This document shows positions 5,407 through 20,520 of a stretch of 64,000 nucleotides of DNA, piece after piece. This DNA is from Psilocybe cubensis (taxonomy: Eukaryota), in the NCBI GenBank assembly GCA_017499595.2, contig CM038998.1, forward strand, positions 3,162,001 to 3,226,000. Reading direction: 5' to 3'. The first letter of the stretch is position 1. Every line of letters begins with the position of its first letter. Made by a program: the position numbers and the translations under genes. A model generated the notes under the pieces. That model was not told the origin of the DNA. It saw only the letters and a list, made by a program, of their open reading frames with translations, and did no database searches.

Positions 5407-5493
5407 TTCAAAGACGAGACCAAACGAATCGCTACTTTGAAGCTGCTACTACGGCTCATGAGCTTTATTCATATACCCAAATTTCTGATTTGA
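5407..5493 (+). ncRNA. Box C/D snoRNA, dual guide: snR50-type (25S Gm867 equivalent) plus snR40-type (25S Um898 equivalent)
   Basis: C box AAGACGA 5411-5417; guide GAATCGCTAC 5426-5435 + D' TTGA, complementary to LSU GUAGCGAUUC; guide TATACCCAAATT + D box CTGA 5485-5488, complementary to LSU AAUUUGGGUAUA. Confidence 0.85.
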
Positions 5494-19381: not shown

Positions 19382-20520
19382 ATGGTGAGTGTATCCCGAA
19401 ACTCTGCCCAAGCTTTGTCCTAATTTGCGTACCCTGCGGCCCCAGAAGGCATCCATTCGCAAGGAAGAGTGGGAAAGGCGCCTGCATGATGTGCAAGTTT
19501 CGAAAGCGTGAGTGCCAATCTGCTGGTCTTTGTTCTGCCTGCTATGCGATGATATTCAATTGGGAATCTCTCTGAATATTCTAAAATTCAATGTAGAGAC
19601 CAATCATTGTTGTTTACTGATTCATCTTCTGTTGTTCCTGTTATGGAGTTCTTTTGTACTGACGGGCACCTTTCGTATCAGTGATTTGAACCGTCTCATC
19701 ATGGACTACCTGGTCATTGAGGGGTACAAATCAGCGGCAGAGGAATTCAGCCAGGAAGCCAATCTCATCCCGCCGGTCGATCCCGAGAGCATCGAAAGCC
19801 GGATGGACATCAGAGAAGCGCTCCAACGAGGAGATGTCGAAGATGCCATCACGCGAGTCAACGACCTGAATCCTGAGGTGTGTGATATTTTCCCATGGTG
19901 TCGAGGCAGCCGCAAAGGATTAAACCGTTTCATGCACCACGCATAAGCCCCTCGGGGCTGCTGATGATACATGTAAACCAAAACTTCAGTCTTCAATATG
20001 ATTCTGCGCTGCCTCGGGAACAAGTCTGTATATATAGAAAGAGAAACTGACGGAGCTCATTGACAGATCCTGGACACGAACCCTGCGCTGTACTTCAAGC
20101 TGCAGCAACAGAAGCTGATTGAATTCATCCGGCAGGGACAGATTGCAGAGGCGCTGACGTTTGCACAGGAAGAGCTCGCACCGCGGGGGGAGGAATCGCC
20201 CGAGTTTTTGTCCGAGCTTGAGCGGACGATGGCGCTGCTGGCATTCGACTCTGCGCCAAACGCGCCGGCAGCGATTGCGGAGCTGCTGTCGCCTGCGCAG
20301 CGGATGAAGACGGCGGGAGAAGTGAATGCAGCGATCCTGGAGAGCCTGAGCCAGGGAAAGGAGGTGAAGCTGGTTGGACTGCTGAAGCTGCTCTGCTGGG
20401 GCGAGTCGCTGCTGGAGGAAAAGGCGGATTTCCCAAAGGTGCGTAGTAGAGGGCGATTCTGGAAAATGGCTAACGGGGTGCTCGGTGTAGCTGAATGTAC
20501 TGGAGGGAACGTTGGTGTAA
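19382..20520 (+). CDS. GID8: GID/CTLH complex subunit Gid8/TWA1 (LisH-CTLH-CRA)
   Basis: Exons 19382-19384, 19446-19507, 19682-19877, 20067-20438, 20491-20520; LisH DLNRLIMDYLVIEGYKSAAEEF; CTLH/CRA LQQQKLIEFIR, ELERTMALLAF. Confidence 0.9.
19541..19625 (+). ncRNA. Intronic box C/D snoRNA, SNORD79/U79-like (LSU A in GAGAUUCCCA)
   Basis: In GID8 intron 19508-19681; C box GCGATGA 19546-19552, guide TGGGAATCTC 19561-19570 + D' CTGA 19572-19575, C' ATGTAGA, D box CTGA 19617-19620. Confidence 0.85.
19902..20016 (+). ncRNA. Intronic box C/D snoRNA, U32/snR40-like (18S Gm1271 equivalent) with non-canonical boxes
   Basis: In GID8 intron 19878-20066; terminal stem CGAGGCAGC/GCTGCCTCG; C box AGGATTA; guide CATGCACCAC 19931-19940 complementary to 18S GUGGUGCAUG; D' CATA; GCCCC/GGGGC stem; C' CTGATGA; D box ATGA 19998-20001. 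Confidence 0.78.

Follow-up and report, generated by a model that had tools for sequence, protein, structure and literature searches.

A putative double-guide box C/D snoRNA with a non-canonical kink-turn pair in a GID8-like intron of Psilocybe cubensis

Described guides of the Gm1271 type and the Neurospora RNA Nc CD55

The 18S rRNA methylation Gm1271 has been mapped in yeast, human, Arabidopsis, Dictyostelium and fly, and in S. cerevisiae it is likewise guided from a D′ box, that of snR40 (RF01201; snoStrip CD_43), which directs Gm562 and Gm1271 with one D′ guide and additionally directs Um898 (published statements, Supplement 1 of PMC2780460 apart, are given throughout from those parts of the sources that were covered; other sources covered in part are PMC12723226, PMC4344503, PMC8583080, PMC11014333, PMC8817022, PMC8216456, PMC11971394, PMC3116282, PMC4605285, and PMC2377427). 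The snR40 RNA differs from the one described here in having another guide register that also pairs with G562 and a D guide for Um898. The plant snoR21/Z221 (RF00300) and Drosophila snoMe18S-Gm1358 (RF00533) RNAs agree with the present locus in the target, the guide word and the position of the D′ box after a short spacer, but differ from it in having canonical C and D boxes (with a G-C pair) and a consensus that lacks a helix-47 D guide. These two families were the best Rfam matches in 11 of the 20 homolog loci scanned, where the homologs scored 20–29 bits and did not reach the gathering cut-offs of 44–50, and the letters common to the homologs and the two families were mostly those of the guide and the boxes. 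The S. pombe snR107 and yeast snR190 RNAs are similar in being intronic box C/D RNAs with two conserved antisense elements, although their targets (25S G2483 and residues 333–343) and their canonical boxes set them apart, as does a second element that works without methylation.

A further described RNA is Nc CD55 of Neurospora crassa (EU780979, Liu et al., 2009, PMC2780460; snoStrip family CD_55, PMC5824354), an intronic RNA that was cloned as a cDNA, validated by northern blot and left as an orphan in 2009 (PMC2780460), and whose family Canzler et al. (2018, PMC5824354) again listed as an orphan, confined to Neurospora. Its boxes are C AUGAUUA, D′ CAUA, a C′ box and D AUGA (Supplement 1, PMC2780460), and on our reading of that supplement it is the only RNA there with the GAUUA/AUGA pair. 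With the Psilocybe locus it has in common the GAUUA C box, the AUGA D box, the D′ guide, the D′ box CAUA, the hairpin between D′ and C′ and the intronic position, together with a 20-nt stretch, compared by eye, that is identical over the guide, the D′ box and the start of the hairpin. Nine of these 20 nt lie 3′ of the guide, the next four bases after the D′ box included. Because the odd box pair and these 9 nt are not dictated by the target, we infer from the sequences that the locus very probably encodes the ortholog of Nc CD55. The Neurospora RNA differs in being longer (137 nt), in its long hairpin and in lacking the 25S D guide, of which only an apparent 5-nt remnant is seen. The non-canonical boxes noted in the original prediction for this locus are real, but as a sequence they are not new, being already present in published Nc CD55. 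We found no paper that assigned Nc CD55 a target and none that joined snoRNA, intron, GID8 and fungi. The N. crassa table lists, in the part covered, guides for Um1265 and Gm559 and none for G1267 (PMC2780460), a gap that CD55 would fill.

The Psilocybe locus, its boxes and its homologs

The RNA lies on the forward strand of the window, by which we mean the whole 64-kb stretch of DNA analysed, within an intron of a GID8-like gene. Its features, with those of the host gene, are as follows:

19385–19445, + strand: inferred first GID8 intron (GT..AG, open 211-aa frame, directly after the ATG)
19878–20066, + strand: host intron of the GID8-like (LisH-CTLH) gene (189 nt, GT..AG, open spliced frame)
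19902–19910, + strand: external terminal stem, 5′ arm (fold and sequence)
19916–19922, + strand: box C variant AGGATTA (GA core kept, position 6 = T)
19931–19940, + strand: D′ guide (10 Watson-Crick bp with own 18S)
19942–19945, + strand: box D′ CATA (degenerate across homologs)
19946–19959, + strand: hairpin between D′ and C′ (fold)
19962–19967, + strand: box C′ TGATGA (near-canonical; missing from the original prediction)
19983–19996, + strand: D guide (14 Watson-Crick bp with own 25S; originally given as a D-side segment at 19984–19997)
19998–20001, + strand: box D variant ATGA (sequence)
20008–20016, + strand: external terminal stem, 3′ arm (fold and sequence)

Inspection of the sequence recovered every element that had been claimed for the locus at its given position, the C box AGGATTA, the D box ATGA and the D′ box CATA among them. 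Splicing of the host intron was observed directly, the 189 nt of 19878–20066 being absent from contigs X1 and X2 (2/2 probable RNA runs of one study). The exons on either side encode LisH and CTLH domains (Pfam), and when joined they gave their best named matches, among 120 proteins compared, to Fistulina (77% protein identity) and Exidia (74%). A GID8-like host is therefore upheld, but its description as intron 3 requires a first intron that was not seen spliced in the contigs. The segment 19385–19445 is the probable first GID8 intron, and it may be partially retained. Contig X2 reads through this segment, and contig X1 begins at its 3′ end. The intronic region folded with a z-score of -2.75, 1 of 200 shuffles being equally stable.

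The pairing rules of the kink-turn (tandem G·A pairs, a U-U pair and a Watson-Crick pair in stem II) and the assembly of the snoRNP are established. The literal consensus RUGAUGA/CUGA was not matched at the locus, which has AGGATTA and ATGA in its place; the GA and TGA cores of a kink-turn are nevertheless present in the sequence, and the predicted replacement of the stem II G-C pair by U-A, with the G·A core kept, recurred in 55 of the 56 aligned sequences among the matches listed (TGA being fixed by the search pattern). The same pair of variants occurs in Nc CD55, which is expressed, and the literal C/D consensus is thus not obligatory. The first base of fungal D boxes has been reported, in the part of the survey covered, as altered in 4.2% of cases, mostly to A (PMC5824354). 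The idea that the two boxes compensate each other holds only when the U-A pair is set against the G-C pair that the general consensus and the plant and fly families carry; within the homologs no covariation was seen because the U-A pair is invariant (score 0 for the C6/D1 pair, while a control slid by +2 paired in 99%, in 56 aligned sequences among the matches listed). The 9-bp terminal stem met a similarly mixed outcome, being present at 19902–19910 and 20008–20016 but not conserved as a sequence feature; the flanks paired at -6 kcal/mol or lower in 28/56 clusters among the matches listed vs. 22% of swapped-partner controls. Its 5′ arm is probably trimmed from the mature RNA, as suggested by the Nc CD55 cDNA, which ends 4–5 nt outside its own boxes.

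Homologs were collected by a metagenome pattern scan for both guide cores plus NNTGA, whose fixed positions were 8 nt in the D′ guide, 12 in the D guide, the TGA and the spacing; bases fixed by the pattern are conserved by construction, and how often guides are lost is not something such a scan can show. The matches listed comprised at least 120 homologous loci, with 91 distinct cores that fell into 56 clusters at 90%. GID8 exons were found on both sides of the RNA in 106 of 120 of the matches listed, on one side in 9 and on neither side in 5. Judged by the best matches of the host, for which the agaricomycete reference set consisted of four proteins, the clusters among the matches listed were agaricomycete-like in 37 cases (38 with L122), Pezizomycotina in 9, unclear in 2 and without a match in 5; two further clusters were Glomeromycotina (three were scored, but L122 was a misplaced, truncated agaricomycete-like one). 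The host exons were 94–98% identical to Glomeromycotina proteins at one locus (L116) and 83% identical to Leotiomycete proteins at another (L028). Conservation of the boxes and the host intron was thus observed over three fungal lineages.

Among the matches listed, several features left free by the pattern were conserved, namely the C box, the first base of box D, the D′ and C′ boxes and the D-guide extension. Box D was ATGA in all 56 clusters, its first base being free in the pattern, and position 6 of box C was T in 55/56; position 2 of box C was mostly G (31) or T (23) in these 56 listed clusters, so the G seen here is not family-wide. The internal D′ and C′ boxes (CATA and TGATGA at the locus) kept their positions in the listed homologs, with box D′ reading CTCA in 28 of the 56 clusters, CATA in 11, CTTA in 6, CGTA in 5 and other sequences in 6, and box C′ reading TGATGA in 34/56. 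The hairpin between them reached -2 kcal/mol or lower in 45/56 clusters among the matches listed, and the D guide extended to 13–16 bp with own 25S in 54/56, an extension left free by the pattern.

Rfam gave no match at gathering cut-offs in the whole 64-kb window, and at E up to 10 it gave two in the intron, both unrelated chance matches, and none at the snoRNA locus. This bears out the expectation that motif scanners would miss the RNA, as does the 2018 snoStrip survey, in whose covered part the Nc CD55 family is Neurospora-only. A DNA search of the genome for paralogs found only the locus itself, though a diverged copy may have escaped it. One candidate paralog from a box and guide pattern (L145) was rejected at 8.3 bits, having neither a D guide nor a D box, and was taken as a chance match; a reversed control also gave 1 match.

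Two individual homologs are worth describing. At L049:512–626 (+) the RNA sits in a spermidine synthase intron rather than in GID8, which is a host switch. The homolog at L048:143–246 (+) belongs to the only cluster among the matches listed with a C-A mismatch at C6/D1 and has a shortened D′ guide; it is possibly decaying.

Pairing of the two guides with 25S and 18S rRNA

To find targets, we considered all perfect duplexes between the candidate RNA and this genome's own rDNA unit (L004), and both antisense elements yielded at least 10 nt in D/D′+5 register on rRNA of the same genome (10 bp with 18S and 14 bp with 25S). The longest duplex joined 19983–19996 to own 25S at L004:4225–4238, the 3′ strand of helix 47, by 14/14 Watson-Crick bp, ending one base ahead of box D, with an energy of -21.6 kcal/mol as against -14.0 for the best non-overlapping site. 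A 14-bp match to rRNA occurred in 1 of 2,974 86-nt windows and 1 of 18,280 20-nt windows of the 64 kb, and that one was the snoRNA locus; a genome search with the 13-mer site, which is also the search that bears on snRNAs, returned 7 occurrences, of which one was the D guide, three were rDNA copies and three lay where there was neither a tRNA nor a box. We therefore hold helix 47 of 25S to be, with high probability, the partner of the D guide, which had been called an orphan matching no modification site; the 14-bp duplex in D+5 register overturns that description.

The candidate base for modification is given by the D+5 base, 19993, which stands opposite A at L004:4228, 25 nt past the A targeted by Nc CD51. 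That RNA is listed as a U24/U76 homolog, and its A corresponds to yeast Am1449 (PMC2780460, in the part covered). On a numbering that assumes no indels between species, and with none found here against the Rfam model, L004:4228 is yeast A1474, N. crassa A1455, Arabidopsis A1484, Chaetomium A1457 and human A2388 (current numbering). The human Am2388 of older numbering is presumably a different base. In the Chaetomium H47 hairpin the A1474 equivalent falls on the 3′ strand, four bases past Psi1453. The site belongs to the H47–H50 unit at the tunnel exit, whose modifications differ between Chaetomium and human ribosomes according to the part of the source covered. Methylation of this A was absent from the covered rows of the tables for Arabidopsis (Gm1460, Cm1479, Cm1518), fly (Gm1692, next Am2183) and Dictyostelium with its yeast and human columns (Am1689, next Gm2132), and likewise from the covered parts of the N. 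crassa tables (PMC2780460) and the A. fumigatus rows. No report of Am1474 was found in the literature searched, the S. pombe and Chaetomium tables, the snoStrip supplement and the A. fumigatus sequences being outside its scope. Because it is in none of the tables covered, 25S A1474 methylation is only predicted, and we consider it likely that the RNA methylates A1474 as well as G1271.

The same silence of the tables is what would be expected if the RNA kept its 18S target but used the D-side element as a folding chaperone on pre-25S helix 47, without methylation, in the manner of the second element of S. pombe snR107 or of yeast snR190. The target strand of the D guide is paired in the mature 25S fold, a non-canonical C/D box adjoins the guide, and in S. 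pombe the ASE2 element of snR107 is described, in the part of the source covered, as pairing with unmodified 25S and as required for 60S biogenesis, all of which fit a chaperone. However, the spacing from guide to box D was one base in 56/56 clusters among the matches listed (a spacing set by the pattern), and the base adjoining box D varied among them (T 36, A 17, C 2, G 1), as in methylation guides. The tables covered, yeast aside, concern N. crassa, in which the guide is absent, or non-fungi, and an essential chaperone would be harder to square with the loss in Neurospora than a modification that can be dispensed with. We accordingly regard the chaperone as a minority reading, improbable though worth keeping in mind, and prefer guided methylation of A1474. 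A further 8-bp pairing joins the spacer and guide start at 19925–19932 to a 25S segment some 50 nt upstream of the D target; many homologs are without this pairing, and we treat it as a lead only.

The D′ guide, CATGCACCAC (19931–19940), formed 10 Watson-Crick bp with own 18S, or 11 counting one G·U, and placed its D′+5 base opposite G at L004:1587, the equivalent of yeast G1271 and two bases past the Um1269 equivalent, in agreement with the Gm1271 target proposed originally. As a match of at least 10 bp to own rRNA was common (815 of 2,974 86-nt windows of the 64 kb), the assignment draws on the register, the conservation and the known site. Among the matches listed, the guide kept 10 bp in 55/56 clusters, 8 nt of it being fixed by the search pattern.

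A separate D′ guide of the snR40/CD43 type was found at L139 (G000:C4, near 1167533, minus strand), and it is a possible redundant guide for G1271. Its energies were -21.2 kcal/mol at G562 and -19.1 at G1271, compared with -19.8 at G1271 for the D′ guide of the locus, which at G562 reached only 6 bp and -10.0 kcal/mol and so lacks the dual-site pairing of snR40. The L139 guide's pairing with both sites, and the service of both by one guide in yeast snR40 (in the part of the source covered), raise the prospect of a real snoRNP whose G1271 is methylated mainly by the snR40-type RNA, leaving the locus to act on the 25S site or as a G1271 back-up. We think this unlikely, since N. crassa retained the D′ guide while the D guide was lost, which places the D′ guide under selection, and since a guide unable to pair with G562 kept 10 Watson-Crick bp in 55/56 clusters among the matches listed. 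Identification of the locus as snR40 itself was rejected: RF01201 gave no match, there was no pairing with G562, and the Um898 D guide was lacking, the D guide pairing with helix 47 instead. A Um898-type guide lies at 5472–5484, and two snR40 functions are split here over two other RNAs, at 5407–5490 and L139.

Two other partners had been suggested for the D-side segment. The one in 18S fell away, as own 18S differs at the site and has no Watson-Crick match of 8 bp or more to the D guide. The anticodon arm of tRNA-Phe does pair with the element over 11 Watson-Crick bp in this genome, longer than first supposed, and at least 11 bp were reached by 34/56 homolog guides among the matches listed against this species' tRNA; yet the duplex is out of register. 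It ends at 19992, the D+5 base 19993 meets a U-U mismatch, and 11 nt separate the anticodon G from box D; the 11 bp, moreover, hinge on this species' U38 (tRNA numbering by our own count). With 25S the duplex reaches 14 bp and takes in a 3′ TCAA that tRNA-Phe cannot pair, making the tRNA a very improbable target. Six intronless tRNA-Phe copies, whose anticodon loop has a U following G37, lie at L135 (G000:C3, near 1.18–1.24 Mb). A first 12-nt tRNA pattern was discarded, having hit 2 genome places that were both non-tRNA.

That the locus is chance intron sequence producing no RNA agrees with its want of an Rfam match but can hardly be reconciled with an RNA kept in the same intron across hosts with GID8 36–95% identical and with an N. 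crassa counterpart seen on a northern, and we are close to certain that it encodes a real box C/D snoRNA.

Proposed model and neighbouring snoRNAs

In our preferred model, which we consider likely as a whole, the locus encodes a double-guide box C/D snoRNA of about 90–95 nt, the agaricomycete ortholog of Nc CD55 in an older two-guide form. Going by established box C/D biology, the snoRNA would be released by splicing of the GID8 pre-mRNA and then trimmed, and its boxes C and D would form a kink-turn, with U-A for G-C, that binds Snu13, Nop58, Nop56 and fibrillarin. The D′ guide would direct 2′-O-methylation of 18S G1271, perhaps jointly with a separate snR40-type RNA, and the D guide would open pre-25S helix 47 and direct 2′-O-methylation of A1474 (yeast numbering). 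This mechanism is ordinary guide-RNA biology, and the kind of RNA and its Neurospora member were already published; the range, the two targets and the family-wide U-A kink-turn were not found in the literature searched.

Two box C/D snoRNAs of N. crassa were still orphans in 2009 and in 2018, and the model supplies one of them with a testable target. It further predicts that a ribose of helix 47, within the H47–H50 unit at the tunnel exit, is methylated. The 2018 survey described, in the part covered, no double-guide family over all major fungal lineages, two clans aside (PMC5824354), and among the matches listed the CD55-type double-guide family spans three fungal lineages, which contradicts the published Neurospora-only range of the Nc CD55 family. 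The natural, fixed U-A variant of the kink-turn could also be used for Snu13 binding tests, and the locus illustrates one way in which snoRNA catalogues miss members. More tentatively, and with somewhat less than even expectation, we suggest that the RNA is an ancient fungal double guide that predates the split of Dikarya and Glomeromycotina, derived from a eukaryote-wide Gm1271 guide, and that it kept its U-A kink-turn throughout; it would then install a fungus-specific Am1474, four bases from a Chaetomium-specific Psi by which the H47–H50 gate of the exit tunnel is tuned, the methylation having been lost in budding yeast and Neurospora. If this reading of the origin is true, the model fungi hide A1474 methylation.

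The preceding GID8 intron (19508–19681) contains a U79/Nc CD14-type snoRNA at about 19543–19613 (+), with a weak SNORD79 match and a 10-bp guide to own 25S at L004:5069–5078. In 37/38 clusters with enough flank among the matches listed, a U79-type guide motif preceded the CD55-type RNA by at most 700 nt, and GID8 thus hosts a conserved snoRNA pair. In N. crassa, Nc CD14 and CD55 are both intron RNAs of chromosome IV according to the part of the paper covered (PMC2780460), which fits a shared host but is no proof of one. At two loci (L040 and L069) there was no GID8 match nearby, and the U79-type guide motif lay 293 and 238 nt upstream, respectively; at these loci the coding host may have been lost and the two snoRNAs kept.

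A second box C/D candidate in the window, at 5407–5490 (+), gave a weak Rfam match to snR40 (23.6 bits, E 0.014). Its D guide (5472–5484) formed 13 bp with own 25S at L004:3651–3663, of the Um898 type, and in place of the 18S guide of snR40 it has a D′ guide (5426–5435) with 10 bp at L004:3621–3630, a site that we take to be of the Gm867/snR50 type. The locus resembles an intronic RNA whose two guides have been reshuffled.
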